A stretch of DNA of 64,000 bases. Source: Dehalococcoidales bacterium (GTDB taxonomy: Bacteria > Chloroflexota > Dehalococcoidia > Dehalococcoidales > UBA5760). Positions 14,698 to 61,611 of this stretch are shown piece by piece (within the stretch, counting starts at the first letter, position 1; each line of letters starts with the position of its first letter). The notes under the pieces were generated by a model. The model saw only the letters and a list, made by a program, of their open reading frames with translations, had not been told where the DNA came from and made no database searches. A program made the position numbers and the translations under genes. The DNA lies in contig DAOULZ010000011.1 of the NCBI GenBank assembly GCA_034414575.1, positions 14,318 through 78,317 of the forward strand, in the 5' to 3' direction.

Positions 14698-14861
14698 GGC
14701 CTGCCTCCTCAGAGTTACCGCTTACTAGAAAGTTAGTCCCCACCCTTCTTTAAGCATTCTACCAATAAGTCCCCTAGTCTCTCCGTGATGTCAGTCTAGG
14801 GTTAGTTCCCTCTGAAAAAAGGAAAAGATCCCCCGAAGAAAGCCCTAGTGCTAACAGGTTA

Positions 14862-14890
14862 TTGACAAACGACATATAATGTGCCAATAT
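14862..14890 (+). promoter_or_regulatory. candidate sigma70-type promoter (TTGACA-17-CAATAT)
   Basis: TTGACA at 14862-14867, a 17-nt spacer, then CAATAT at 14885-14890, inside a 770-bp gene-free gap. Confidence 0.3.
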
Positions 14891-14977
14891 ATAGACAGGT
14901 GGCATTCATAACATCACCAGGGGAGAAAAGGCTAGTGTTGCTACCTTGGCATAGCCTCCAAGAGAGGCGGTATTACT

Positions 14978-15118
14978 ATGAGTGCGGCGATGGTTAATTA
15001 CATGAGGAAGGTCTGGTTCCGAATAAGGTGGCTTACCATGTCTGATAGGGAGCGGTATGCTTACCTGTGGAATCGGACCAAATGCAGCCACTGGCGCCAT
15101 GCCCATTCCTTCCGCTAG
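14978..15118 (+). CDS. candidate 46-codon small ORF (basic, Trp-rich)
   Basis: It is below the ORF-track length cutoff. ATG at 14978 is preceded by AGAGAGGCGG. Translation: MSAAMVNYMRKVWFRIRWLTMSDRERYAYLWNRTKCSHWRHAHSFR. I recognise no family. Confidence 0.2.
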   Translation: MSAAMVNYMRKVWFRIRWLTMSDRERYAYLWNRTKCSHWRHAHSFR

Positions 15119-15466
15119 GCTCAGCCATCGGGTTATTAAGCAAGCCTAGCTTTGGGTTATGACACTCTAGTTCAGTTTACCTTCCGTTAGCTTCATACCG
15201 CTGGACTCCTTTCGACCCCCCAAACTGATTTAAAAGGCTTGAGTCCCTTTTTCGCATCCCCCCGTCCCATCTTTTAGGCCGCTATTCTGGTTTAATGGTT
15301 CGCCAATACCCAAAAGTAGGAAGCAGGTTTTTTGTGGTAGTCATCCAGTCCGAGTGGCCAATTGGTTATCCTGTCGTTATCAAGCCGGTATCTGGTATAA
15401 TAATTATGGGGTAACCGACGAATACAGATTTCATCTCGGTGAGAATAAACAGACTAGGGAAAGAAG

Positions 15467-16101: not shown

Positions 16102-17376
16102 TCACAGTGTCCGGTAATAAAACCCCGCTTTTCCGGCTTCAGCAGCATCAAAGATGCCCCGGACATCTATTAGGACTGGGTTAGAATTCTGCATTCCCTT
16201 GAGGTCATTCAGGGTGAGACCGAGGAAGAAGGAATGAGCCACACTAACAATGACACCGTCGGCCTGGAATTGTTTTATCTCAGTCAGATCCCTCAGCAGT
16301 CTTATGCCGAACTCATTTTGAAAGCCGGCTCCGCTTAATAAAGGATCAAAGCCCGCTATTGCTACCCCGTATTCCCTAAGCTGCCTTACTACCCCCTTGA
16401 TCGGGCATTCCCGAGTGTCGGCAACATCTTTCTTATAGGTAAGCCCCATAATCAGCACCCGCGAGCCTTTAATGACCTTCCCCGCTTCGTTGAGGGCTTT
16501 TATGGTCATCTCAGCGACGTGCTTGGGCATGTGGTCATTGATGGCTCTGCCGGCCAGGATAACTTGAGGATGGTAACCAAGCTCTTTGGCCTTGTAAACT
16601 AGGTAATAAGGATCGACAGGAATACAATGCCCCCCGACCAGCCCTGGCGAGTAGCGGTGAAAGTTCCATTTAGTGGCTGCGGTATCGAGGACATCCTTGA
16701 TACTAAGACCCATCTCCGCAAATACTAGTGCTAGCTCGTTGGTGAGGGCTATATTTAGGTCGCGTTGTACATTCTCAACGACCTTAGCTGCTTCAGCCGT
16801 CTTTATATCCTTGGCCACAAAAATCTGCGCGCTTACTTTCCGGTAAAGCTCGGCAGCAAGTTTGGTAGTCTCCCGGTCCATCCCGCTAATTACCTTAGTA
16901 ATCTTATCTAAGGCGTGACGGTTGTCTCCAGGGTCTTCTCTCTCCGGGGAGTAGGCGAGCTTAAAATCTTGGCCGCACTTGAGTCCCGATTCCTGCTCCA
17001 GAATAGGCTTCACTATTTCCTCGGTGACACCGGGATAGACTGTAGACTCTAAAACGACTAAACTTCCTTTCTTCATAGTCTGGCCTACGGTTCTGGCAGC
17101 GCTTGTAACATAAGAGAGGTCAGGCTCTTTAGACCTTGTCACCGGGGTGGGAACACAGATGATAATAAAATCGGCTTTACCCATCTCCTGAGGATTATCG
17201 GTGAAATGCAAATCCTGACTATTATTATCTAGGCTCAGTTTTTTTATCTTGGCGCTGTCGGTGTCAAAACCGATGACTTCAAGGCTTTTGGCGAAGGCCC
17301 TGGCTAGAGGCAAACCGACATAGCCAAGACCGACGACGCCAATAATGGATTCATTGCGTCTCATCTTATTGTTCAT
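16102..17376 (-). CDS. nucleotide-sugar 6-dehydrogenase (WbpA/WbpO/TviB-like, UDP-N-acetylhexosamine dehydrogenase family)
   Basis: GVVGLGYVGLPLA NAD fold and catalytic GGHCIPVDP; 424 aa. It overlaps the upstream epimerase gene by 11 nt. Confidence 0.8.
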   Translation of the reverse strand: MNNKMRRNESIIGVVGLGYVGLPLARAFAKSLEVIGFDTDSAKIKKLSLDNNSQDLHFTDNPQEMGKADFIIICVPTPVTRSKEPDLSYVTSAARTVGQTMKKGSLVVLESTVYPGVTEEIVKPILEQESGLKCGQDFKLAYSPEREDPGDNRHALDKITKVISGMDRETTKLAAELYRKVSAQIFVAKDIKTAEAAKVVENVQRDLNIALTNELALVFAEMGLSIKDVLDTAATKWNFHRYSPGLVGGHCIPVDPYYLVYKAKELGYHPQVILAGRAINDHMPKHVAEMTIKALNEAGKVIKGSRVLIMGLTYKKDVADTRECPIKGVVRQLREYGVAIAGFDPLLSGAGFQNEFGIRLLRDLTEIKQFQADGVIVSVAHSFFLGLTLNDLKGMQNSNPVLIDVRGIFDAAEAGKAGFYYRTL

Positions 17377-18310
17377 TAGAAAACCAGTCTATGGTTTGTA
17401 CTAGTCCTTCTTCCAAGCTGTACCTAGGTTTATATCTAAATGCCCTAGCCTTGGAGATATCTGCCAAGCTGCGTCTGGTATCACCTGGCCGCGGCGCTTG
17501 GTAAATCGGGTCTACCGTGCTGCCCATAAGTTTAATGGTAAGGTTGGCTAGCTCGCTTATGGTGATACTCACGCTGGCTCCAACATTAAAAGCCCCGGTA
17601 GCATTGCTCTCGCAAGCCAGGATGTTGGCGGCTATGGCATCGGCGATAAAGGTAAAGTCCCTGGTTTGATGACCATCGCCGAAGATAATGGGGGGATTCC
17701 CTTCCAAGAGTCTCTTGATAAACCTGGGTATGACGGCGGCGTAATCAGAGTTGGGGTCCTGCCTCGGACCGTAGACATTGAAATATCTCAGGCGTGCCGT
17801 GGGCAGGCCGTATATCTCCTGAAACACCCGGCAATAGTGCTCTCCGGCGACCTTGGTTATGGCATAAGGAGACCTGGGTCCTAAGGGCATATCCTCCTTT
17901 CGGGGCAGAACTGGTGAGTCACGGTAAACGGACGAAGATGAGGCGTAGATAACCTTTTTGATGTTGTTATCCCTTGCCGCTAGGAGCACGTTTAGGGTTC
18001 CCGTGATGTTTACTTCGTGGGAAGCGGCCGGGTTCTTTACACTCCGGGGAATGCTGGAGAGGGCCGCTTGGTGGAATATGTAGTCGGCGTCCCGAAATAA
18101 CTTATGTAGCAGAGGAAGGTCGGTAATGCTGCCCTGAATGAACTCTACCTTAGGCTTATCAAGTAACGGCTTTAGGTTTTTTATCTTACCGGTGGAGAGG
18201 TCATCAAGAATGATGACATGGTAACCTCGCCTTACCAGCTCTTGAGCAAGATGGGAACCGATAAATCCAGCACCACCGGTGACAACTGACCGTTTCATCT
18301 GCCCTTTCAT
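17366..18310 (-). CDS. NAD-dependent sugar epimerase (WbpP/TviC-like extended SDR)
   Basis: VTGGAGFIGSH and YAITKVAGE (YxxxK); 314 aa. Pairing with the dehydrogenase mirrors the TviB/TviC and WbpO/WbpP gene pairs. Confidence 0.8.
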   Translation of the reverse strand: MKGQMKRSVVTGGAGFIGSHLAQELVRRGYHVIILDDLSTGKIKNLKPLLDKPKVEFIQGSITDLPLLHKLFRDADYIFHQAALSSIPRSVKNPAASHEVNITGTLNVLLAARDNNIKKVIYASSSSVYRDSPVLPRKEDMPLGPRSPYAITKVAGEHYCRVFQEIYGLPTARLRYFNVYGPRQDPNSDYAAVIPRFIKRLLEGNPPIIFGDGHQTRDFTFIADAIAANILACESNATGAFNVGASVSITISELANLTIKLMGSTVDPIYQAPRPGDTRRSLADISKARAFRYKPRYSLEEGLVQTIDWFSNEQ

Positions 18311-18432
18311 TTCCAGCTTTGTAAATGCGCTTTAGTTTTCTCCGCGCTAAATTCCCTCGAACTAATCTACCTTTCTCTCAGGATAGGGCATAAGTTACAT
18401 CAAGTGAAGTTTAGTTTTAGGCTGCACCTGAG

Positions 18433-18461
18433 ATTATAAACCAAAATAAGACAGATGTCAA
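18433..18461 (-). promoter_or_regulatory. consensus promoter for the epimerase/dehydrogenase operon (TTGACA-17-TATAAT on the - strand)
   Basis: The reverse complement of 18456-18461 is TTGACA and of 18433-18438 is TATAAT. The spacer is exactly 17 nt. Confidence 0.6.
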
Positions 18462-18478
18462 TATATATGGCTTTTATA

Positions 18479-18507
18479 TTGACAAAAGTCCAATTCTAGT
18501 GTATAAT
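18479..18507 (+). promoter_or_regulatory. consensus promoter (TTGACA-17-TATAAT) heading the + strand glycan genes
   Basis: TTGACA at 18479-18484, a 17-nt spacer, TATAAT at 18502-18507. It sits back-to-back with the - strand promoter. Confidence 0.6.
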
Positions 18508-18561
18508 CGCTTCAGATGCCGTGGATAACGGCACGGCATTTGAGGCAGTCTTCGAGGCAAA

Positions 18562-18759
18562 ATGGCAGGATTAAAGGAAAAGATTAGGGCGCTGCGTGAG
18601 AAGAGAGGCTGGTCGCAAGAGGATTTGGCACGGGAGATAGGGGTTAGCCTGTCAACGATTCAGCGATGGGAGACAAGAGACTATAAGCCCTCTCGCTTGG
18701 CTCACCGAGAGCTGTCAAAACTGCTCAAAAAGGCAGGGATTGAGGAGAAAGAGGGGTAG
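18562..18759 (+). CDS. XRE-family HTH transcriptional regulator (65 aa)
   Basis: LREKRGWSQEDLAREIGVSLSTIQRWE is a canonical Cro/C1-type HTH. Confidence 0.8.
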   Translation: MAGLKEKIRALREKRGWSQEDLAREIGVSLSTIQRWETRDYKPSRLAHRELSKLLKKAGIEEKEG

Positions 18760-42099: not shown

Positions 42100-42775
42100 G
42101 CTTGCCAAGGAATTTTACAACGCATTCTGGAGAGAAGAGTTAAGTAAGGGGCTAGAGATAGAGGCCCGCTGTCGTCATAATACGGTAGTTGCGGCCATTC
42201 CCCCAAAAGTAAGACTCAGAGAGAGAGCCAGGATTTTAGATCTTGGGTGTGGTAAAGGCGACCTAGCGGTTCGCTTGGCAGAGTATGGTGAAGTAACCGC
42301 AATAGATTTTTCCACCGAAGCTATCGCCATAGCTCAAAAGAGGTATCCACACATTAATTTTGTCTGTGCCCACTTTTTTGACATCTCCATAGAAGAGGCT
42401 TGCTATGATCTAATCGTTTCGTCCGAAGTAATAGAGCATCTTAGTAAGGAGGAACAGGGTAGCTACCTAGAATTAATATATCGGTCCTTAGCTGAGGGTG
42501 GCTACCTGATACTGACTACTCCAAATAAGAGAGTTGCCAGAGCATTGGGTAGAAGGGGTAATCAACCAATCGAGAACTGGCTAGCAATTGACGAACTAAA
42601 GAGTCTCCTCGCCGAGCATTTCAAAATCCTGAGGGTTTATACCACCTATTTCGAACCAATAAGATATCGGATTCGTAACAATTACCGACTGTATTTCCAG
42701 CTTGTTGAGCCAGTTTTTAGAAGGACTAAATCAGGCTTGTACACTGTGATCCTTGCCCAAGGACACGGAATCTAA
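42077..42775 (+). CDS. class I SAM-dependent methyltransferase
   Basis: Motif I ILDLGCGKGD; DLIVSSEVIEHL; GGYLILTTPN. Confidence 0.75.
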   Translation: MIVANTNRLAKEFYNAFWREELSKGLEIEARCRHNTVVAAIPPKVRLRERARILDLGCGKGDLAVRLAEYGEVTAIDFSTEAIAIAQKRYPHINFVCAHFFDISIEEACYDLIVSSEVIEHLSKEEQGSYLELIYRSLAEGGYLILTTPNKRVARALGRRGNQPIENWLAIDELKSLLAEHFKILRVYTTYFEPIRYRIRNNYRLYFQLVEPVFRRTKSGLYTVILAQGHGI

Positions 42776-42778
42776 CTG

Positions 42779-44110
42779 CTATAGCTTGCTAAACTTAGCT
42801 TGAAATGAACCCCACAGATTTCTAGCCGTCCTTGGGTAAAACCTTATGTCTTCAGGCTTGACTAACAGGACGTCTTTTGGCTTGAGTCCTGATAACCTCG
42901 AGAAAAAGAAAAACACGATGAAAAAGCTCAATGAGTATGATATGGTGGTAGCTAGCGCTGCTCCGGCGGTTCCCCATTTGGGAATCAATATCAGATTCAG
43001 CCCGATGTTTACCCCCAGGGATGCCAGTGAGGCATACATAGCAAATGCGGGCTTACCGATACCGGCTAGGTAGGCTGCGCTAACTGAGGTGAGACTAACT
43101 GCGATAACGCCGGGCAGAAGAATCAGTAGTGGCGTGAAGCTGGGGAGGAAAGCCGGGCCGTATAAAATTCCAATTGCCCACCTGCCAATAACCGCTAATC
43201 CGAGACAGGCTAAGAGAGTGACCAGCAAGGTATGCCTGAGCAGTGTTCCCGTCATTTCCCTAGATTCATCTGGATCAGAAGAGGCGACTGCAGGGAATAG
43301 GATTGTTTTTACCGGCCCCGAAAGCATCCAGACCATTTCGGCTATTCCTACGGCGATGGAGTAGAATCCGACCTGGGTGGCGCCCATGAAATAGTTTACT
43401 AAGAACATATCTGACCGGTAGTGTAGGAAGGTAAAAATATTAGCCATGTGTATTTTAATCCCATAATGTAGCGACTCTTTTAGTAGGCCTCTTTTCAAGC
43501 GAAACCTGACCTCGGTCAGCCTATTTACTAAGCAGAAGGAAGAAGCAAACATGGCTATCGAGATGAAGATAGAGACTAGAATAAGCGAGGATAGTCCTTT
43601 GTTCAGGATAAGTAGGACCAGTGCCGAACCGCCCAGCAGCAGCGCGGGTTGGAGGATGTTAAGGAAATTAAATTGCTTTACTTTAAATTTCACCAGCAGG
43701 ATATGTCGGAAGTAGACGGGGGTGATAGAAAAGGGTATGGCCAGAAGAACCAGGTGAATCAATGAAGGATCCACATCTTGAAAAACCGGGGCAAGGAAAG
43801 ACTTATAGGCGAGCAAAAATAGGATGGCGAGAGAAGCCCCGGCGGTAAATCCAAATGCGAGCGAGTTAGAGGCGATATCGGTAAGACTAAACCTCTTGCC
43901 CCCAATAAAGTAGGTATTGGCCCCAGCAAGTCCCAGGTTTCCCAATTGAAATAATAAGCCGGGCACTAGCAGCACCAGGGCATATACACCTTTATCATGC
44001 GGCCCCAGCGCTCTGGCGACGATAATGGAGGTGGGTATGCCTAAAGCAGCAATGAGGATGTTGGAAAAGAATACTGTAGAAATGTCTTTCGTTAGATGAA
44101 ACCTATTCAC
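42779..44110 (-). CDS. wzx: Wzx-like polysaccharide/oligosaccharide flippase (MOP superfamily)
   Basis: 443-aa polytopic protein with a typical polysaccharide-biosynthesis-protein profile. It overlaps the upstream gene by 8 nt. Confidence 0.7.
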   Translation of the reverse strand: MNRFHLTKDISTVFFSNILIAALGIPTSIIVARALGPHDKGVYALVLLVPGLLFQLGNLGLAGANTYFIGGKRFSLTDIASNSLAFGFTAGASLAILFLLAYKSFLAPVFQDVDPSLIHLVLLAIPFSITPVYFRHILLVKFKVKQFNFLNILQPALLLGGSALVLLILNKGLSSLILVSIFISIAMFASSFCLVNRLTEVRFRLKRGLLKESLHYGIKIHMANIFTFLHYRSDMFLVNYFMGATQVGFYSIAVGIAEMVWMLSGPVKTILFPAVASSDPDESREMTGTLLRHTLLVTLLACLGLAVIGRWAIGILYGPAFLPSFTPLLILLPGVIAVSLTSVSAAYLAGIGKPAFAMYASLASLGVNIGLNLILIPKWGTAGAALATTISYSLSFFIVFFFFSRLSGLKPKDVLLVKPEDIRFYPRTARNLWGSFQAKFSKL

Positions 44111-46034
44111 CGCTATTCATTACCTGAGGAAGGTAAGTAGTTACTTCGCCGTTACTATATATCTTGTTATACCCTGTTTCTTCTTCTAAGCTCCTTATCT
44201 TATACTTTTGGATTTCGTCGAGCTTAGTGCCATAGGTTGAATACCCCATTTTCCCTTTGGGGGATTGAACCCTGAATGGATAATTGAGAATATTCTCTCT
44301 TATGACGAGGGCGTTTTCGACCTCTAGTCCGGCATCGATAAATGGATATATATCTTCGGCATTCCTATTAAGGGCCAGCTCAATATAGCTACCGTAGGAT
44401 GAGTCAGAGACTATTTCTCCATCGTAGAATTCAGTAATTCTACCTGCGGCCGCAATCTCAGATTCGAACCAGTAACCTCTATATGATGCCTCTTTGTTAA
44501 TGATGGGGTTGCTATGCCCAGTTAGGGAGGTAGATATCATAGTGAAGGCAAGAACCAGAGCGATTACGGTGACGCCGAATAGCTGTGCCGGTTTGCCCTT
44601 AGCAACACTATGGATCAGAAAGATTCCCTGGGCAGCCGAAATGGCCATGATTACATAAATGGATGCTGACCATCTGCCAGGGAGTAGGATATCAGGGTTA
44701 CCCAATAGACCGCTGGCAAACAAAACTAGATTCAATCCAATAAAAGCACCGACTAGTGAGAGAGCATATCGGTAGTTCTTCCGGTGTTCCCAGAAATATA
44801 AAGCGGCCAGAACCGATAGGCTTAAGAGACAGGTAAAGCCTACGTTTTCAAGCAAAACCGAGGTAACATCGCTTGACAGCGCCGTGATTTCAAAGGCGGG
44901 AATATTAAAAGCGTTGGCAATTATTTTCCCCAATTCCGAAAACCAGTACCGCGATATGTATACCCAATAGCCCAGTAGAATGAAGATGAACCAAAGGGGG
45001 GTCGAGAATGATATATTGCCTGTTAGACTTCTTTTAGACCGGGAGAGGAATTGGTTTACAAAGTAGATTGACAAAATTACGACTAGGAATATAGTGGCGG
45101 AGATAGTATGCGTATACACCATGAGCAGTGACAAACATAGCCACAGCAGTACGAAGGTGATGTTGGCACTGGAGGTGCGCGATTTTATTAGCACGAGGAG
45201 TAGAACGAGGAGGAGACCGATACCAAGCGTCATGGGTATGATGTAATACCCCCAGAAAAGGAAGGGAGCACTGAACCCGGCAAACAAGGCTCCGAGTAAG
45301 GCTACTTTATTACCACCCAGGACAATCCTTCCGATGCAGAATAGGCTTAACAGGCTTGTGACTTGATATACCCCTATCAGCATCATTGAGGTATTGATAT
45401 TGAGGTTGGTTGTTGATTTCACGGCGGCCACGACAAAGTGCATGGCCAGGAAATCTCGATAGTAATCATAGCTGGTTGAGGGGATGTGGGATTCAGCTAG
45501 CATATCGCTCACCAAGCGTGAATGTTCAAAAAAGTCCTGTCCGATATTGGGGAAGAAATAGTGTGGAATCGCTATCAAAAGTAAAGAGGTGATTATTATC
45601 TTGGCTAAGGTAAGGTAGGGATACTGGCCCCTTCCCTCTGGCATCAGGAATATCTCTATTACCAGGATGAGACACATGGCAGTAGCGCAGTAAAAATAGC
45701 TTACCGGGATAGTATAGGCATCCGCGTTAACGGCGGTGAACAGGATATAGGAGAATAGTGAGAAGAAAAGCACGTTTAAAGCCACGGTGGGCTTGGGGAT
45801 ACTCGATAGTGGTTTGGCGGTAAGCACGGCGTTCGGGTTGGGTGAGATACGCTTACGCAGCAGCAAATAGGCAGCACTGCCCGCAATCAGGGCGATACTT
45901 TTGGGTGTCGGCCGGCCCCCGCTAACAAAAACGTCGAAGGCGAGGAAGACAAGACCGGCACCTAGAATAAGCATAGGAACGATCCGGGGACAGGAGTCTG
46001 CTTTGGCAGAAGGGCTTACAATGTTATCTTGCAT
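44103..46034 (-). CDS. large polytopic membrane protein with a C-terminal soluble domain (polymerase / GT-C-like; resembles archaeal DUF2206-type proteins)
   Basis: 643 aa. About 450 aa of TM helices precede a ~130-aa soluble tail. No WWDYG oligosaccharyltransferase motif is seen. Confidence 0.5.
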   Translation of the reverse strand: MQDNIVSPSAKADSCPRIVPMLILGAGLVFLAFDVFVSGGRPTPKSIALIAGSAAYLLLRKRISPNPNAVLTAKPLSSIPKPTVALNVLFFSLFSYILFTAVNADAYTIPVSYFYCATAMCLILVIEIFLMPEGRGQYPYLTLAKIIITSLLLIAIPHYFFPNIGQDFFEHSRLVSDMLAESHIPSTSYDYYRDFLAMHFVVAAVKSTTNLNINTSMMLIGVYQVTSLLSLFCIGRIVLGGNKVALLGALFAGFSAPFLFWGYYIIPMTLGIGLLLVLLLVLIKSRTSSANITFVLLWLCLSLLMVYTHTISATIFLVVILSIYFVNQFLSRSKRSLTGNISFSTPLWFIFILLGYWVYISRYWFSELGKIIANAFNIPAFEITALSSDVTSVLLENVGFTCLLSLSVLAALYFWEHRKNYRYALSLVGAFIGLNLVLFASGLLGNPDILLPGRWSASIYVIMAISAAQGIFLIHSVAKGKPAQLFGVTVIALVLAFTMISTSLTGHSNPIINKEASYRGYWFESEIAAAGRITEFYDGEIVSDSSYGSYIELALNRNAEDIYPFIDAGLEVENALVIRENILNYPFRVQSPKGKMGYSTYGTKLDEIQKYKIRSLEEETGYNKIYSNGEVTTYLPQVMNSGE

Positions 46035-46195
46035 TTTCTAATCGCTATCGCTGGTATACTCCTGAGCGAAAGGCTCGTAGTGTCAATTGTGCCCTGTCAA
46101 CTTTTCGGGTACGGCATCCTTATCTCTTCTTGAGCTGGTTCCCTCATCAGGCAAAAGCTGTGTTGAATGAGGCTTCACCTTACCCAGCATTTAAG

Positions 46196-46240
46196 ATTAT
46201 AAACCAATATAGTGACAAAAGTCAATATTAGTGGTATAAT
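46196..46240. promoter_or_regulatory. compact bidirectional promoter with overlapping -35 boxes in the palindrome TGACAAAAGTCA
   Basis: On the + strand: GTGACA (46212-46217), 17-nt spacer, TATAAT (46235-46240), preceded by an extended -10 TG. On the - strand: TTGACT (reverse complement of 46220-46225), 18-nt spacer, TATAAT (reverse complement of 46196-46201). Confidence 0.55.
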
Positions 46241-46375
46241 AGTGCCAGTAGGCATATCAGGATATCGGGGATGTTCTAACTTTAGACCGGGTGCTTAATT
46301 CTAGTAGGTGAAGCGAGATAGAATATGTTGCTGAGGTTATTGCGCAAATTACTTTAACGAATCGGTCCCAAGTCG

Positions 46376-46648
46376 ATGGAGGAGGTAGGGGACAGCGCCG
46401 TGGACCTGGTTTCGGTACTTTCGGATTTGGGCTATAAGTTCTATTGGTATTCCCCTTCGACAAGGAAAATCAAAGTGTATCCCAGTACAGAGATCTTGAT
46501 AAACTCAATAGCCGATGGAGAAGATGCTAACTACGTTCTGAGTGTAGGGGATTTAAGGTCGGTGTCATCGCCGGCCTCATCGGCTTGGCAGAGTATGCCA
46601 GCCCAGAAGAAACGAACCAAAACTGATAAGGAGATGGCCCTGCTATGA
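46376..46648 (+). CDS. hypothetical 90-aa protein (possibly a methyltransferase C-terminal remnant)
   Basis: VDLVSVLSDLGYKFYWY recalls FkbM-type C-termini, which is a weak resemblance. ATGA overlap with the next gene. Confidence 0.35.
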   Translation: MEEVGDSAVDLVSVLSDLGYKFYWYSPSTRKIKVYPSTEILINSIADGEDANYVLSVGDLRSVSSPASSAWQSMPAQKKRTKTDKEMALL

Positions 46649-47469
46649 GGATAACGCTTCAAAAGAGACTTGTAATTGTAAATGTCCTAGCAGCTACGCT
46701 CATTGTTATCATAACCTTCGTGCCCCATGATCTTCCGCGAATAATCCTGGGGTTGCCTTTTGTAATGTTCTTTCCCGGCTATACATTGATGGCGGCGCTC
46801 TTTCCCAAGAGAGATAGCGTGGATAGCGTTGAAAGAGTGGCCTTAAGCTTTGGGATCTCGGTGGCGGTGGTGGCATTTGACTTACTCATACTTAACTACA
46901 CTATTTGGGGCATTAAGTTATATCCTATTCTTATTTCTATTATAGTTTTCATTTGGGTCACCTCACTGGTTGCTTGGCAACGGCAGAGAAGATTATCGGC
47001 GGAGGATAGACCTACCGTCTCTCTCAGTTTCGGTTTCACTCTTCAAAGAGGAAGACCTTTCTTGGTCTTTATTATAGTGGCCATAGTCGGTGCGGTGGGC
47101 ATTCTGGGCTATCTTATGGCTAACCCTAAGATGGGGGATAGGTTTACCGAGTTTTACGTGGTGGGACCAGGGGGCAAGGCTGAAGGCTATCCCCGGGAGT
47201 TGGTGATGGGAGAGGAGAGCAGGGTGACGGTGGGCATTGTCAATCGTGAGTACCAGCCGGTGACCTACAGTTTGGCGGTAGCAATAAACGGCACCGGAGA
47301 TGGTGAGATGGAACCTATAACCCTGGAACACGAGGGTCAGTGGGAGGGGGTGGTTAATTTCACTCCTAGTATAGCGGGTGATGACCAGAAGGTGGAGTTC
47401 TTGCTCTACCGGGCTGACCAGAGTGAGGTTTATCGGCAGCTACACATCTGGATTGACGTAGGGGAATAA
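46645..47469 (+). CDS. DUF1616-like membrane protein (archaeal-type)
   Basis: ILGLPFVMFFPGYTLMAALFP...ERVALSFGISVAVV...LNYTIWGIKLYPILISI, then FTEFYVVGPGGKAEGYPRELVMGEESRVTVGIVNREYQPVTYSLAV. This matches the DUF1616 pattern as I remember it. Confidence 0.6.
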   Translation: MRITLQKRLVIVNVLAATLIVIITFVPHDLPRIILGLPFVMFFPGYTLMAALFPKRDSVDSVERVALSFGISVAVVAFDLLILNYTIWGIKLYPILISIIVFIWVTSLVAWQRQRRLSAEDRPTVSLSFGFTLQRGRPFLVFIIVAIVGAVGILGYLMANPKMGDRFTEFYVVGPGGKAEGYPRELVMGEESRVTVGIVNREYQPVTYSLAVAINGTGDGEMEPITLEHEGQWEGVVNFTPSIAGDDQKVEFLLYRADQSEVYRQLHIWIDVGE

Positions 47470-47829
47470 ATCAGCATCTATAATAGAATTGCCCAAGGCC
47501 TCTGTCATCGGCAGGTTTAAAAAGTGCCGTTTCCTATAACGACGTACACCCTGATTGGGCACTACACCTGATCCAACAGCTCTTCTATGTAGGAAACCCA
47601 CCCTTCTACCGCATTATAACTGTGGTAGTCTGCTTAAGAAGGTTACGGGTCGTGCCCAGCAAGATAGGTCAATAGGGATTACCAAAAGTTTTTACAGTAA
47701 TCGTGGGTGAGGGGTTTGACCATAGCCTTTAGTAAATGTATTCTGTTAGGTGTACCCTTTGCATTTAGGGTATTGACCTAGTTATCAAACATGATTAAAC
47801 TTAAACTCCCAAAATGACGGGATAAACAT

Positions 47830-48387
47830 ATGGGTTTCTTTGATAAAGCAAAGGATACATTTCGAGAAAAGACAAGAGATAAGGTATGCGCCACTCTAAA
47901 AAGCATAGGAGTGGATGCTAAACTGGCTGAAAATGGACGCCCTGAGGAAAATATAAAATGTGGTTTTGGTATTCACTCGCTTGGAATCATTGACATAGCT
48001 GAAGGTCCCATACGTTGGGTCAACATACGTATTGACGTCAATGGAACTAATTGGATTGACTTTGGAGTCCCAGACCCAAGGCTGGGCCAAAGTGAACACA
48101 AAGTTCTAATTCAAGCACACTTTCAAAAGACTTTGTTTGGTCTCGGCAGGCTCGTCGATTTGATATGGCGGGGTGAAGACTCAAGTTTGGGTATTATCCA
48201 GCGTCTTAATGATGATATACCACTAAAGAATACATTAATGAGGGCGAATGCATATGATTTTACAGTCAGTGCTTATAATAGTCCCAGCTGTTGGATAATA
48301 TCAGTAGCTTATCTGATTCCTCCTACTGAAGAGTTGTGGGATTGCTACCAATCGATAGCTAAGCACCTGCTTGCTGATTGGGCGTAG
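47830..48387 (+). CDS. hypothetical protein in an AT-rich patch
   Basis: 185-aa ORF with no recognisable motif. Two 60-nt lines (47941-48000 and 48241-48300) count 22 and 23 G+C, versus 33 in a control line at 52201-52260. Confidence 0.45.
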   Translation: MGFFDKAKDTFREKTRDKVCATLKSIGVDAKLAENGRPEENIKCGFGIHSLGIIDIAEGPIRWVNIRIDVNGTNWIDFGVPDPRLGQSEHKVLIQAHFQKTLFGLGRLVDLIWRGEDSSLGIIQRLNDDIPLKNTLMRANAYDFTVSAYNSPSCWIISVAYLIPPTEELWDCYQSIAKHLLADWA

Positions 48388-48686
48388 CTACTAAATATTT
48401 GAAAATATTGGTTTGCAGGCTGCAGGGATGACTGACCATCACTGGAACTGTGTTCTAGAATAAGATACCTTCTCACACGGGACAATTCGTGCGATGCTAT
48501 TGAGGGTAGCCGTCTTTGCTTTTGATTACTGTCGGCGGCTAGTAATATGCTTAATCGAGCTCTGCGGCAGCAGTGTATACCGGCGGTTTTGGTACAGGTG
48601 AGATTTAGGATAGTTCGGCTCGTTAGCAAAGACTTTATACAGTATTAATGTTATAACCGGTGTAACAGACGGGACAAGCTATAGCT

Positions 48687-50159
48687 ATGTTTAGAATACG
48701 GGAGTTCATTGCAACGATGCTGGTTTTGGCAGTCGTCCTGACGCTGAACACGGTAGTATTCATGGCGCAACCAGCATCAGCCGCCGTTGGTGTTTTGTTT
48801 GATACCGGACATCAAATGGATGCGTCCGATATTTCTGGGTACAGTAACATGATTACCGACCTCACTTCACGAGGCTTCCAATTCACTGAGGATAGCGACG
48901 GTGATATTACAGAAGCGGATTTAAGTGGCAATCATATTCTGGTAATAGTGGAGCCAGACAATGCGCTATCTACTTCGGAGATAAACATTATTCAGAGTTT
49001 TATCGCCACTGGACACAGCTTATTACTTATGTCGGATGAACTGGACGAAAGTGGCAGAGTAGCGGTTAATACTCTCCTCAGTCCTTATAGTATCCAGCAA
49101 TCAACTAGACTGGAAGGAAAGGGCGTCTATACAGACATCTCCAGCCATACTGTCACCAATGGGGTGTCACAATATAACCATGAGTCAGAGGGCGTCAAAT
49201 TTGATATAGTAGATTCTCCAGCATTGTCTTTAATAAGGAATGGGGATGGGGATACGTTAGTTGCCGCGTGGCATGCAGGCGCTCGAGTTGTAGTTGTATC
49301 TGACGAGAACTCTTTTCGACGGAACCGGTACCACAATCCTGATAACAACATACTTATTCGGAACGTTTTCGATTGGTTAGCCGGTGTTGAACCTCCGGTA
49401 GCTGATTTCTCTGCTCAGCCAAGAACCGGGCAAGATTTGTTAAATGTCTACTTTGTCGATAAGTCTATAGGTGACATTACTGACTGGCGTTGGGACTTTG
49501 GTGATGGTACCAGTAGTAGTGAACAGAACCCTACCCATGAATATGATAATACTGGAAAATATACGGTCAGGCTTTCTGTTACTGGTGCCGGGGGCTCGGA
49601 CATTAAAATAAAACAGGGCTATATCAATGTGGTTGACGCGTCAGGAATGGTAGCTGAAGCTGAAGTGGCTGAGTTTGTGACATCTAACATTGACATAGAA
49701 CCCTCCCAAGTTCTGCCCGACCAGGTGGTAAGTATCTCCGTAAATGTGGCTAATAGTGGAGGTGCCGGGGAAAATTATCAGGTGGTTCTTAATATAGATG
49801 GGAACCTAGAGGATAGCCAGTTAATAAGCTTATCTTCAGGGTCTTCTCGCAGAGTTGTATTTAACGTAACCAGGACAATTCCAGGTGCATATGAGGTATC
49901 GATTGAGGGACATAAAGGTCAGTTTATTGTAATCGGGAATGCACCTAATGCATCGGCTACAAATGCAGCGAGTAACCCACCAGCCAGCAGTGGCCTGGGG
50001 ACCCCAGTGATTGTTGGCATTGTTCTTGGTAGTGTGGGCGCAGCCATAGCTGTGATTATGGTCACTAGACGTCGGCGTCGCCCGGATTATCTACAGGACC
50101 TGGAAGAAAAGTATCAAAAGGTTTTAGATGACTTGGATAAGATAAAGAAATCATTATAA
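48687..50159 (+). CDS. secreted surface protein: N-terminal domain + PKD domain + CARDB-like domain + C-terminal TM anchor
   Basis: Signal peptide ...AQPASAAVG. PKD motif WRWDFGDGTSSSEQNPTHEYDNTGKYTVRLSV. C-terminal PVIVGIVLGSVGAAIAVIMVTRRRRR. Confidence 0.75.
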   Translation: MFRIREFIATMLVLAVVLTLNTVVFMAQPASAAVGVLFDTGHQMDASDISGYSNMITDLTSRGFQFTEDSDGDITEADLSGNHILVIVEPDNALSTSEINIIQSFIATGHSLLLMSDELDESGRVAVNTLLSPYSIQQSTRLEGKGVYTDISSHTVTNGVSQYNHESEGVKFDIVDSPALSLIRNGDGDTLVAAWHAGARVVVVSDENSFRRNRYHNPDNNILIRNVFDWLAGVEPPVADFSAQPRTGQDLLNVYFVDKSIGDITDWRWDFGDGTSSSEQNPTHEYDNTGKYTVRLSVTGAGGSDIKIKQGYINVVDASGMVAEAEVAEFVTSNIDIEPSQVLPDQVVSISVNVANSGGAGENYQVVLNIDGNLEDSQLISLSSGSSRRVVFNVTRTIPGAYEVSIEGHKGQFIVIGNAPNASATNAASNPPASSGLGTPVIVGIVLGSVGAAIAVIMVTRRRRRPDYLQDLEEKYQKVLDDLDKIKKSL

Positions 50160-53507: not shown

Positions 53508-53813
53508 CTACGGCTTTTCAGTTTTTGGCTGTTGCTTTCTACGCTTCCAACCCAGCATCACTAGCAGCTCGCCTACTTCAGCATCACTTATTTCGTCCTT
53601 AAGGGGCATATCGGGGTGAATCTTATACTTATTCTGCCGACCGACTTTCGTTTTTGATATATACCCCGCTTCCTCAAGGTCCATAATTATGCGGTGGGCC
53701 GTCCTCTCTGTTACCCCAATAGTGTCCCCAATCTCCCGGGCGGTAAGATTCGTGTGTTTAGCAATAGTCGCTAAAACCAGTCCATGATTCGTAATGAAAG
53801 CCCACTCACTCAT
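53508..53813 (-). CDS. small winged-HTH transcriptional regulator, copy A
   Basis: The ORF track starts at 53858. I prefer ATG at 53813 (MSEWAFITNHG...), which has AGGAGG 5 nt upstream and matches the start of copy B. HTH region: LTAREIGDTIGVTERTAHRIIMDLEEAGYISK. Confidence 0.8.
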   Translation of the reverse strand: MSEWAFITNHGLVLATIAKHTNLTAREIGDTIGVTERTAHRIIMDLEEAGYISKTKVGRQNKYKIHPDMPLKDEISDAEVGELLVMLGWKRRKQQPKTEKP

Positions 53814-53960
53814 GCTAACCTCCTTCAAAAAATAGTTATAAAAAGCCCTAAAAACCACTTGACAAATTGCGGAATTTAGTTATAATAATATTCTAGAAAT
53901 GTATTTCTAGTAATAGTTATGTTGTTATATGATACCAGACATTTAACGAAAAATCAAGCC
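53536..53960. repeat. direct repeat copy A (regulator gene + promoter/operator block)
   Basis: Aligns by eye with 61096-61510. 85 of 100 positions match in the hand-aligned stretch 53541-53640 versus 61101-61200. There is one ~11-nt indel just upstream of the start codon. Confidence 0.85.
53859..53957. promoter_or_regulatory. face-to-face promoter pair flanking the palindromic operator CTAGAAAT-GT-ATTTCTAG
   Basis: P(+): TTGACA at 53859-53864, 16-nt spacer, TATAAT at 53881-53886. Palindrome at 53893-53910 (8+2+8, perfect). P(-): TTGATT (reverse complement of 53952-53957), 17-nt spacer, TATCAT (reverse complement of 53929-53934). Confidence 0.6.
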
Positions 53961-54161
53961 CCATAACAGTAGTTTGCGACAGGAAGTGAAACAAGAAATA
54001 ACATGAAAAGACCTGACCAGAGTAAGGCTAAAACAAAGAAAATCGAGGTTAAAGCTAAAAAGAAGGTAAGCTAACTATCGGGCATAGGATCCCTGCTTTC
54101 CCAGCCTCCCAGACAAGAAAACCGACATAAAGGGCTTCAGTCAGAAAAGAGAAATGTAAAA

Positions 54162-61058: not shown

Positions 61059-61373
61059 TTAAATCACACTACTGCTTCTCGGTTTTAGGTGTCTTTTTCT
61101 GCGCTTCCAGCCTAGCATCACCAGCAGCTCACCTACTTCGGCGTCGCTTATTTCGTCCTTGAGCGGCATGCCGGGGTGGATTTTATACTTATTCTGCCGG
61201 CCGATTTTAGTTTTTGATATATACCCCGCTTCCTCGAGGTCTATTATTATACGATGGGCCGTCCTCTCGGTTACCCCAATATTGTCTCCAATTTCCCTGG
61301 CGGTAAGGTTCGGGTGTTTAGCAATAGTTGCTAAGACCAGTCCATGGTTCGTAATGAACGTCCACTCACTCAT
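61059..61373 (-). CDS. small winged-HTH transcriptional regulator, copy B
   Basis: ATG at 61373 (MSEWTFITNHG...) with GGAGGA upstream. There are 6 differences from copy A in the first 93 aa, and the C-terminal tails diverge. Confidence 0.8.
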   Translation of the reverse strand: MSEWTFITNHGLVLATIAKHPNLTAREIGDNIGVTERTAHRIIIDLEEAGYISKTKIGRQNKYKIHPGMPLKDEISDAEVGELLVMLGWKRRKRHLKPRSSSVI

Positions 61374-61510
61374 TTTGATCCTCCGGCGAAACATTTTCCA
61401 AAAACCACTTGACAAACTCTGAAATTTATTTATAATAATTTTCTAGACATATATTTCTAGTAACATATTTGTTGTAATATGATACCAGAAACTTATTAAA
61501 AAATCAAGCC
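61096..61510. repeat. direct repeat copy B
   Basis: See copy A. The offset is 7560 nt in the CDS part and 7550 nt in the promoter part. Confidence 0.85.
61409..61507. promoter_or_regulatory. second face-to-face promoter/operator block
   Basis: P(+): TTGACA at 61409-61414, 16-nt spacer, TATAAT at 61431-61436. Imperfect palindrome CTAGACATATATTTCTAG at 61443-61460 (2 mismatched positions). P(-): TTGATT (reverse complement of 61502-61507), 17-nt spacer, TATCAT (reverse complement of 61479-61484). Confidence 0.6.
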
Positions 61511-61611
61511 TCGGCAAATGGTTCTAATTGGTAGGCAAACGTGATGGAGGGAAGGTAGCCTGGGCAGTAAGGCCTGGATTATACAGCTCTCAAAATGGAA
61601 GAGGTGATGAA

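Follow-up and report, generated by a model that had tools for sequence, protein, structure and literature searches.

A putative promoter-operator-leader module shared by two divergent nodes of a Dehalococcoidales glycan gene region

Two divergent intergenic regions in a glycan gene region

Dehalococcoidia are abundant in sediments, are largely uncultured and lack peptidoglycan, with an envelope that is defined by surface glycans and S-layers. To our knowledge, almost nothing is known of how their surface-glycan genes are controlled. Here we describe two divergent intergenic regions, or nodes, at 18.4 and 46.2 kb of a 64-kb stretch of DNA from a Dehalococcoidales bacterium (contig DAOULZ010000011.1 of assembly GCA_034414575.1, hereafter the window), both of which belong to a promoter family that is also found at the head of glycan gene units in other genomes. 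The leftward unit at 18.4 kb (- strand) is composed of an NAD-epimerase gene (17366-18310) followed by a UDP-glucose dehydrogenase gene (16102-17376). The rightward unit (+ strand) begins with the gene for a 65-amino acid XRE-type helix-turn-helix protein (18562-18759; PF01381 HTH_3, 1.8e-13) and continues as a glycan operon of ∼24 kb, to position 42775, that contains GT2, UDP-GlcNAc 2-epimerase, GT4, asparagine-synthase-like, ATP-grasp, DegT and methyltransferase genes. At 46.2 kb, the leftward unit (- strand) encodes a 643-amino acid polytopic membrane protein that has no Pfam match (44103-46034) and then a Wzx/MurJ-like flippase (42779-44110), and the rightward unit (+ strand) consists of a 90-amino acid open reading frame (ORF, 46376-46648) and then a DUF1616 gene (46645-47469). 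Glycan genes extend beyond both nodes (16102-18310 and 46376-50159). To the left of 16.1 kb are the non-glycan genes DegV and a branched-chain amino-acid ABC transporter, and to the right of ∼50 kb are Usp, MFS and MarR; therefore, the nodes lie 2-4 kb inside the edges of a glycan region of ∼34 kb. These annotated genes agree with the arrangement of four transcription units, facing outward and inward, that an earlier reading of the DNA letters (the original prediction) had proposed. Searches of the window for tRNAs, Rfam families and a GC step found none that mark the region.

Scanning for a -35 TTGACA and a -10 TATAAT that are 16-18 bp apart identifies a near-consensus sigma-70 promoter for each of the four units, at the anticipated positions. 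At 18.4 kb, P18L (18433-18461, - strand; -35 at 18456-18461, -10 at 18433-18438) and P18R (18479-18507, + strand; -10 at 18502-18507) are arranged back-to-back, and both are perfect 12/12 matches of the form TTGACA-17-TATAAT. At 46.2 kb, P46L (46196-46225, - strand; TTGACT-18-TATAAT, -10 at 46196-46201) and P46R (46212-46240, + strand; GTGACA-17-TATAAT, with TG ahead of the -10 at 46235-46240) each match at 11/12. The window contains four perfect 12/12 promoters, where chance alone would give ∼0.02 by our own arithmetic. At 46.2 kb, the pair of -35 boxes do indeed overlap inside a palindrome, TGACAAAAGTCA (46213-46224), and the -10 boxes are 33 bp apart (46202-46234); this node would be a compact natural two-way promoter of 45 bp, built on overlapping -35 boxes.

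The two intergenic regions share more than these hexamers. A 14-mer, AGATTATAAACCAA, is found at 18431-18444 and 46194-46207 and, even with one mismatch tolerated, at no other site in the window (0.02 expected), and the sole copies of a 10-mer, GACAAAAGTC, are those at 18481-18490 and 46214-46223 (0.08 expected), both words as first noted. The 10-mer was also said to be followed by TAGTG.TATAAT at both nodes, which is the case at 46.2 kb but not at 18.4 kb, where TAGTG directly abuts TATAAT, a 1-nt indel. Local alignment of the two regions gives a score of 30.5, compared to 10.9 ± 1.6 and a maximum of 20 for 1000 dinucleotide shuffles, or ∼12 standard deviations above the shuffles. Furthermore, the two regions are reciprocal best non-self matches across the window, for which the 99th percentile is 15-16. 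The 60-nt flanks that correspond to the leaders show no significant similarity when those of the two nodes are compared alone, outside the context of the family described below.

Both nodes have the same skeleton of two palindromes that are 30-31 bp apart. At 18.4 kb, palindrome A (AGACAGATGTCA, 18449-18460; 7/8 against TGNCA-NN-TGNCA) overlaps the -35 of P18L and lies 18 nt upstream of the -35 of P18R, the distal-operator position for that promoter. Operator-like palindrome B (TGACAAAAGTCC, 18480-18491), centered 31 bp from A, overlaps the -35 of P18R and is in the distal position for P18L, for which the distal site reads GGACTTTTGTCA (6/8, at 18 nt). In this way, each palindrome contributes to one -35 and doubles as the distal site for the opposite promoter. 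The region as a whole forms an imperfect palindrome of ∼79 bp (self reverse-complement score of 38.5), indicating that its two promoters are homologous to each other. Although this region had been described as seemingly a tandem duplication, it is better read as the standard pair of distal and proximal palindromes of the family, within that imperfect palindrome. At 46.2 kb, the distal palindrome TGCCAGTAGGCA (46243-46254; 7/8) is 17 nt upstream of the -35 of P46L, where it is read as TGCCTACTGGCA, with its center 30 bp from that of TGACAAAAGTCA, and falls at ∼+3 to +14 of the predicted P46R transcript. No distal palindrome is present upstream of P46R.

A module family in other genomes

A scan of species-representative genomes (the source genome is not among them) with the pattern TTGAC-N4-GTC-N4-7-TGGTTTATAAT gave 51 hits, including metagenome-assembled genomes (MAGs) of Dehalococcoidales, Dehalococcoidia and Chloroflexota, in which the pattern immediately precedes orthologues of the 65-amino acid XRE gene, with sugar genes next. 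Searching metagenome contigs with an XRE alignment identified at least 255 relatives of the XRE protein, and 80 loci were retained; 66 non-redundant loci have a promoter of at least 10/12 that ends 45-70 nt ahead of the XRE ATG. The module at these loci is ∼130 bp long and consists of a distal palindrome, a spacer, a promoter with a proximal palindrome and a leader, arranged as TG(C/A)CA-NN-TG(G/T)CA, 16-18 nt, TTGACA-NN-TGTC(C) overlapping the -35, TATAAT and ∼50 nt of leader. The gene that follows XRE is of a sugar or glycan type in 40 of 56 loci, with types that include GT2, NTP transferase, GHMP kinase, PGM/PMM, epimerase and UDP-glucose dehydrogenase, as well as DegT, UDP-GlcNAc 2-epimerase and an RfaE-like enzyme. 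A single genome can contain several modules or XRE paralogues, as at locus L124, which has two convergent XRE units, and at loci L026 and L030 of one MAG. At locus L142 (7479-10192; Dehalococcoidales MAG GCA_030690265.1), an XRE-headed glycan operon is divergent from the gene for a 772-amino acid STT3/AglB-type oligosaccharyltransferase, which suggests that such loci make protein-linked (S-layer) glycans; the 643-amino acid membrane protein of the window may have a role related to that of STT3/AglB.

Conservation in the 66 loci is not confined to the hexamers. Positions +8 to +12 after the start of the -35 read T-G-T-C-C with 1.2, 1.6, 1.3, 1.8 and 1.1 bits, respectively, and these positions played no part in choosing the 66 promoters. 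Together with the -35 they form a near-palindrome, TTGACA-NN-TGTCCA, and additional constraint is seen at the TA just 5' of the -35 and the TT just 5' of the -10. A hidden -35 of a reverse promoter was considered as the cause of the TGTCC constraint and rejected, because a usable reverse promoter (at least 10/12) that shares the palindrome is present in only 4 of the 66 loci. In the window, the corresponding positions are TGTCT in P18L, TGTCA in P46L, AGTCC in P18R and AGTCA in P46R, such that G9, T10 and C11 are present in all four promoters. When 97 promoter-like window sites were scored with a family matrix made from other organisms and restricted to non-hexamer positions, P46L ranked first (24.4 bits) and P18L second (20.1 bits), against a window median of -22.6 and a training median of 20.7. 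P18R (5.9 bits) and P46R (4.1 bits) ranked fourth and fifth, and P18R is also the top window match (18.6 bits) to the family 14-mer TTGACAAnTGTCCA. The best-conserved family members in the window are the two leftward promoters with their ∼50 nt of leader, and the rightward ones are weak.

A distal palindrome of at least 7/8 is present in 50 of the 66 loci, compared to 2.6% of shuffles, and one of 8/8 in 23 loci, compared to none of 1320 shuffles. It is separated from the -35 by 16-18 nt in 29 loci, 5-7 nt in 13 and 39 nt in 4, and these distance classes step by ∼11 and 22 nt, approximately one and two helical turns; the centers of the distal and proximal palindromes are most often 30 bp apart. 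Looking 16-18 or 5-7 nt upstream in the window, we find a matching distal palindrome for P46L and P18R and the 6/8 site for P18L, with TGCCAGTAGGCA in the same position class as the 29 loci. Extra conserved bases that form helically phased palindromes are as expected for a binding site of a common regulator, which is consistent with the suggestion in the original prediction that the nodes may share one.

Strong sigma-70 promoters could in principle resemble each other by convergence, in which case the shared words would be consensus in an AT-rich context and no shared regulator would exist. All four promoters are 11-12/12 matches, the window has other perfect promoters, and the 51 places matched by the pattern lie in unrelated genomes, many of them Firmicutes. 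However, GTC is missing from +9 to +11 in five other strong promoters of the window, and promoters of 11-12/12 other than the four have negative scores on the matrix of non-hexamer positions, which bears out the view that the likeness extends past the hexamers and is not generic consensus. In addition, neither the alignment at ∼12 standard deviations above shuffles nor the retention of TGTCC, the distal palindrome and the leader in 66 loci that share no more than 57-74% XRE protein identity is expected from convergence. This explanation is already largely refuted and we consider it very improbable.

The leader is the third conserved component. A consensus of ∼50 nt, AAGTGCTAyg.AAGgTGAAAC.TTgCTTAAyAyAGCTT.TGaGG, is common to the XRE, P18L and P46L leaders. 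The conserved part of the P18L leader (18372-18432, - strand; CTCAGGTGCAGCC...AACTTCACTTGATGTAAC) is homologous to the XRE leaders of L045, L054, L059 and L063, and that of P46L (46135-46195, - strand; CTTAAATGCTGGGTAAGGTGAAGCCTCATTCAACACAGCTTTTG) also aligns with the family consensus. So too does the XRE leader behind P18R (18508-18561, + strand), which contains the inverted repeat ATGCCGTG (18516-18523)...CACGGCAT (18532-18539). The P46R leader does not align with it. For P18L and P46L, homology to the family spans from the distal palindrome through ∼50 nt of leader. A leader of this kind raises the possibility that the element acts at the RNA level, as a hairpin for processive antitermination or translational control in the manner of ops/RfaH or LoaP, and that the DNA palindromes are secondary. 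The length of the operon behind P18R, ∼24 kb, would suit such a function, and pairing in the stem proposed for the leader is seen in 62-65% of cells compared to 25-48% when slid. Nevertheless, RNAalifold found no consensus structure in the leader, covariation in two stems drawn by hand is not above shuffles (199/500) and the mean folding z-score is only -0.44. No Rfam 15 family reaches its gathering score in the window and four related loci gave only chance-level matches (E ∼0.8-0.9), the ops core GGCGGTAG is absent from all four leaders, and the genes annotated in the island include none that is NusG-like. As it would also leave the upstream palindromes unexplained, we find an RNA-level element doubtful. 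Elsewhere in the window, GGCGGTAG occurs at 5 sites (1.7 expected), mostly within coding sequence.

Comparison across the family also gives a history for the two nodes. The nearest relatives of P18L are XRE promoters of other genomes, such as that of L063 at 74% identity, and P46L is closer to its orthologue in L134 (80%) than to P18L. Since P18L and P46L are only 68% identical to each other (mutual ranks 7 and 14 of 72), and each is closer to promoters of other genomes, they are old paralogues and not a recent local copy. A common origin, as first suggested, therefore stands in that both regions belong to one cross-genome family, but not as a private duplication within this genome, given that L063 and L134 are closer. 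P46L is kept upstream of the orthologous gene in L134, L135 and L136, and at orthologues of the 643-amino acid protein (58-72% identity) the two-way module, distal palindrome and leader are all retained. The equivalent of TGACAAAAGTCA is TTGACATTTGTCAC in L134 and TTGACATTTGTCTA in L135 and L136, L136 has a site, gtgccttactggcg, that is similar to TGCCAGTAGGCA, and a reverse promoter of 11/12, the counterpart of P46R, is kept in L134 and L136. A layout predicted to fire in both directions appears to be conserved only at the 46.2-kb node (L134 and L136). At 18.4 kb, the closest relative is L139, with an XRE protein that is 88% identical and an orthologous P18R of 12/12. On its leftward side the -10 is degraded to CAGAAT and there is no epimerase gene, yet palindrome A is conserved at the distal position as GACAGATGTC, indicating that the palindrome is retained independently of leftward promoter function.

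Not every module is followed by an XRE gene. In the window this is the case for P18R only; P18L, P46L, P46R and the modules of L030 and L134-L136 would drive other glycan genes, with a GT2 gene behind the L030 module. A search for remnants of XRE genes behind that module, P18L and P46L found none, with scores equal to shuffles. It is conceivable that we are looking at promoter reuse only, in which a promoter-leader cassette was copied ahead of different glycan genes or serves as a recombination anchor for the exchange of glycan cassettes, in which it is conserved for the strength of the promoter and the function of the leader, and in which the palindromes have no dedicated regulator. The occurrence of the module ahead of non-homologous genes (XRE, epimerase, the 643-amino acid protein and GT2), with homology that reaches ∼50 nt into the leader, is what would be anticipated, and promoter reuse is documented in prokaryotes (PMC3575422). 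Similar to the putative mobile promoters of that report, a homologous promoter stands ahead of non-homologous genes, but here the copies are diverged (65-80%), serve one functional gene class and carry operator-like palindromes, and no transposable vehicle was seen. Promoter strength alone does not account for 1.1-1.8 bits at TGTCC or for phasing by ∼11 nt, nor for the retention of the palindrome in L139 where the leftward promoter has decayed. Moreover, P18L and P46L are not close copies, and 68% identity is too low for a RecA recombination anchor. We view reuse without a regulator as unlikely, although if the palindromes prove to be unbound the family would still document well how a promoter and its leader are reused among glycan operons.

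Another possibility is that the modules are att-like direct repeats that bound a mobile or recombining island. The repeats point the same way at a distance of 27.7 kb, with most of the glycan genes between them. However, no integrase or tRNA was found, there is no GC step at the repeats, glycan genes lie outside of both (16102-18310 and 46376-50159), the module is single at operon heads in other genomes, and among the fetched loci there is no strain that lacks exactly 18.4-46.2 kb and has a single hybrid module. We give this explanation hardly any weight.

The XRE protein as a candidate regulator

Across 70 distinct orthologues, the helix-turn-helix of the 65-amino acid XRE protein (GW.QEDlAREIgVSLSTVQRWE) shows conservation of 90% or more, as would fit a DNA target that does not vary. 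The names of 160 homologues are only generic. No specific NCBIfam family reaches its cut-off for this protein, and 40 PDB sequence matches (E up to 1) include no controller (C) protein; the P22 C2 repressor is a weak sequence match (E 1e-3). Some orthologues are named 'ribosome-binding protein aMBF1' (JGI), but TIGR00270 scores 40 bits against a cut-off of 110, indicating that the name is an over-annotation of a bare helix-turn-helix.

We propose that a dimeric helix-turn-helix protein binds both palindromes and that the best candidate is the 65-amino acid XRE protein, encoded by the first gene behind most modules, for which TTGACAACTGTCCA and TGCCATCTGGCA are candidate target DNAs. Occupancy of the proximal site would compete with sigma at the -35 and result in negative autoregulation, and the distal site may add cooperativity or activation. 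The same layout would be reused for two divergent nodes, with palindromes shared crosswise at 18.4 kb and one palindrome serving both -35 boxes at 46.2 kb. As the palindrome layout is shared by both nodes, one regulator could set all four units of the ∼34-kb region. Based on comparison of DNA sequences, we put at roughly 60% the probability that the two regions represent one conserved promoter-operator-leader module that heads surface-glycan units in Dehalococcoidia-like Chloroflexota and coordinates these four units, probably through XRE.

Several observations weigh against this reading. All of the promoter calls are consensus matches, and the proximal 'palindrome' is half -35 hexamer, such that the independent evidence for it is TGTC(C) only. 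The centers of the half-sites differ between the two palindrome types (TGCCA and TGACA), and therefore one protein may not read both. P18R, which is the XRE gene's own promoter in the window, and P46R are weak family members outside of the hexamers (5.9 and 4.1 bits). In the species-representative scan, unrelated Firmicutes promoters also matched TTGAC-N4-GTC...TGGTTTATAAT, and thus the short words alone are not diagnostic. Likewise, TGMCANNTGKCA with up to one mismatch is found at 16 window sites compared to 5.6 expected, mostly within genes. The counts of the shared words cover the 64-kb window.

A more elaborate version of the regulator model is that XRE and the phased palindromes form a controller-like switch of activation and repression at the head of several alternative surface-glycan loci in one genome, with paralogous XRE proteins that, as all copies have the same type of operator, would cross-regulate one another to give switch-like or mutually exclusive S-layer or N-glycan variants without DNA inversion. 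We regard this as speculative and rather improbable, but such a switch would be a functional analogue of the UpxY/UpxZ hierarchy of Bacteroides in a lineage without genetics. In L124 (3900-5540), a pair of XRE paralogues is placed face to face within 1.5 kb, and each has a separate family promoter; one XRE gene is followed by a GT2-like ORF (a label that does not come from a Pfam scan), and the intervening genes look fragmented, for example an 82-amino acid epimerase-like piece. In L045 (6920-7390), a truncated XRE gene (MEGLKEKVKALREKRGWSQEDLAREIES...stop) lies behind an intact family promoter, which is faced by a second family-type promoter ∼470 bp away.

Parallels with known systems and other promoter motifs in the window

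The closest architectural parallels are with small autoregulatory switches. In the C.PvuII system, a distal operator activates and a proximal operator that overlaps the -35 represses, and the operators, or C-boxes, are pairs of GACT-N3-AGTC with a conserved 4-nt spacer (PMC2175313). The module resembles such switches in that a tiny XRE-type helix-turn-helix gene is first in the operon under its own promoter, and in having two upstream palindromic operators with GAC/GTC-like half-sites, the proximal of which overlaps the -35; autoregulation here is proposed. In contrast, the sites of the module follow TGNCA-N2-TGNCA and are spaced by 16-18 (or 5-7) nt, the genes behind it are for glycans in place of a linked restriction enzyme, and C-activated promoters are weak without C whereas the module promoters are consensus. 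We therefore rejected membership in the C-box family, for which half-site spacing, inter-operator spacing, cargo and protein similarity all fail. Divergent promoter-operator regions of the Cro/CI type are found in temperate phages, such as lambda OR, P22 and 434. They too combine an XRE-family gene, back-to-back divergent promoters and several palindromes that overlap promoter elements. However, at the window nodes there is no second regulator opposite and there are no phage genes, the partners being sugar enzymes and membrane proteins, and several glycan units of the chromosome have a copy of the module.

The 46.2-kb node has a counterpart in symmetric bidirectional promoters. Bidirectional promoters in E. 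coli reportedly share overlapping -10 elements on opposite strands (work of Warman et al.). As in these, one short pseudo-symmetric segment, of 45 bp, could engage RNA polymerase in both orientations and drive divergent transcription. Symmetry-based bidirectional promoters in which key elements coincide on opposite strands have been described (bioRxiv 10.1101/2020.01.31.928960; PMC12825309). Unlike the shared -10 type, the window nodes have -35 elements that overlap or abut, and their -10 elements do not overlap. With respect to polysaccharide operons, JUMPStart/ops elements act with RfaH in enterobacteria, and UpxY/UpxZ genes head each Bacteroides capsule locus. Similar to these, long polysaccharide operons begin with a recurrent element, a conserved non-coding module and/or a small regulator gene, that may coordinate several loci, but the ops core is absent from the leaders, the candidate regulator here is of the XRE family and the promoter is itself part of the conserved element. 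Most economically, the module is read as a promoter-operator of the autoregulator type, here used for glycan operons and with two divergent nodes. We found no description that combines Dehalococcoidia, glycosyltransferase, helix-turn-helix and promoter in the literature, coverage of which was incomplete and makes this weak evidence of novelty. A consensus cis-element, a 65-amino acid candidate trans-factor and at least 255 natural variants together make for a directly testable regulon.

Two other features of the window involve promoter motifs. First, a gap of 770 nt without a convincing ORF (14698-15466) holds TTGACAAACGACATATAATGTGCCAATATATAGACAGGTGGCA, a motif at 14862-14904 whose reverse complement resembles the palindrome and spacer of the 18.4-kb node. 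With 6.1 bits, this motif takes third place on the family non-hexamer matrix, and it could represent a third module that has degenerated or the promoter of a small RNA. Second, an unrelated pair of homologous promoter regions of ∼125 nt is located at 53849-53975 and 61399-61525. Both have a perfect TTGACA-16-TATAAT (53859-53886 and 61409-61436), followed by the inverted repeat TTCTAGAAAT.TATTTCTAGTAA, and each is divergent from a small gene on the - strand, at 53508-53858 (MarR-type, Pfam) and 61059-61415 (unannotated), respectively. These two genes share their first codons, a Usp gene is downstream of the first copy, and the pair looks like a duplicated cassette of a regulator plus its operator and promoter.

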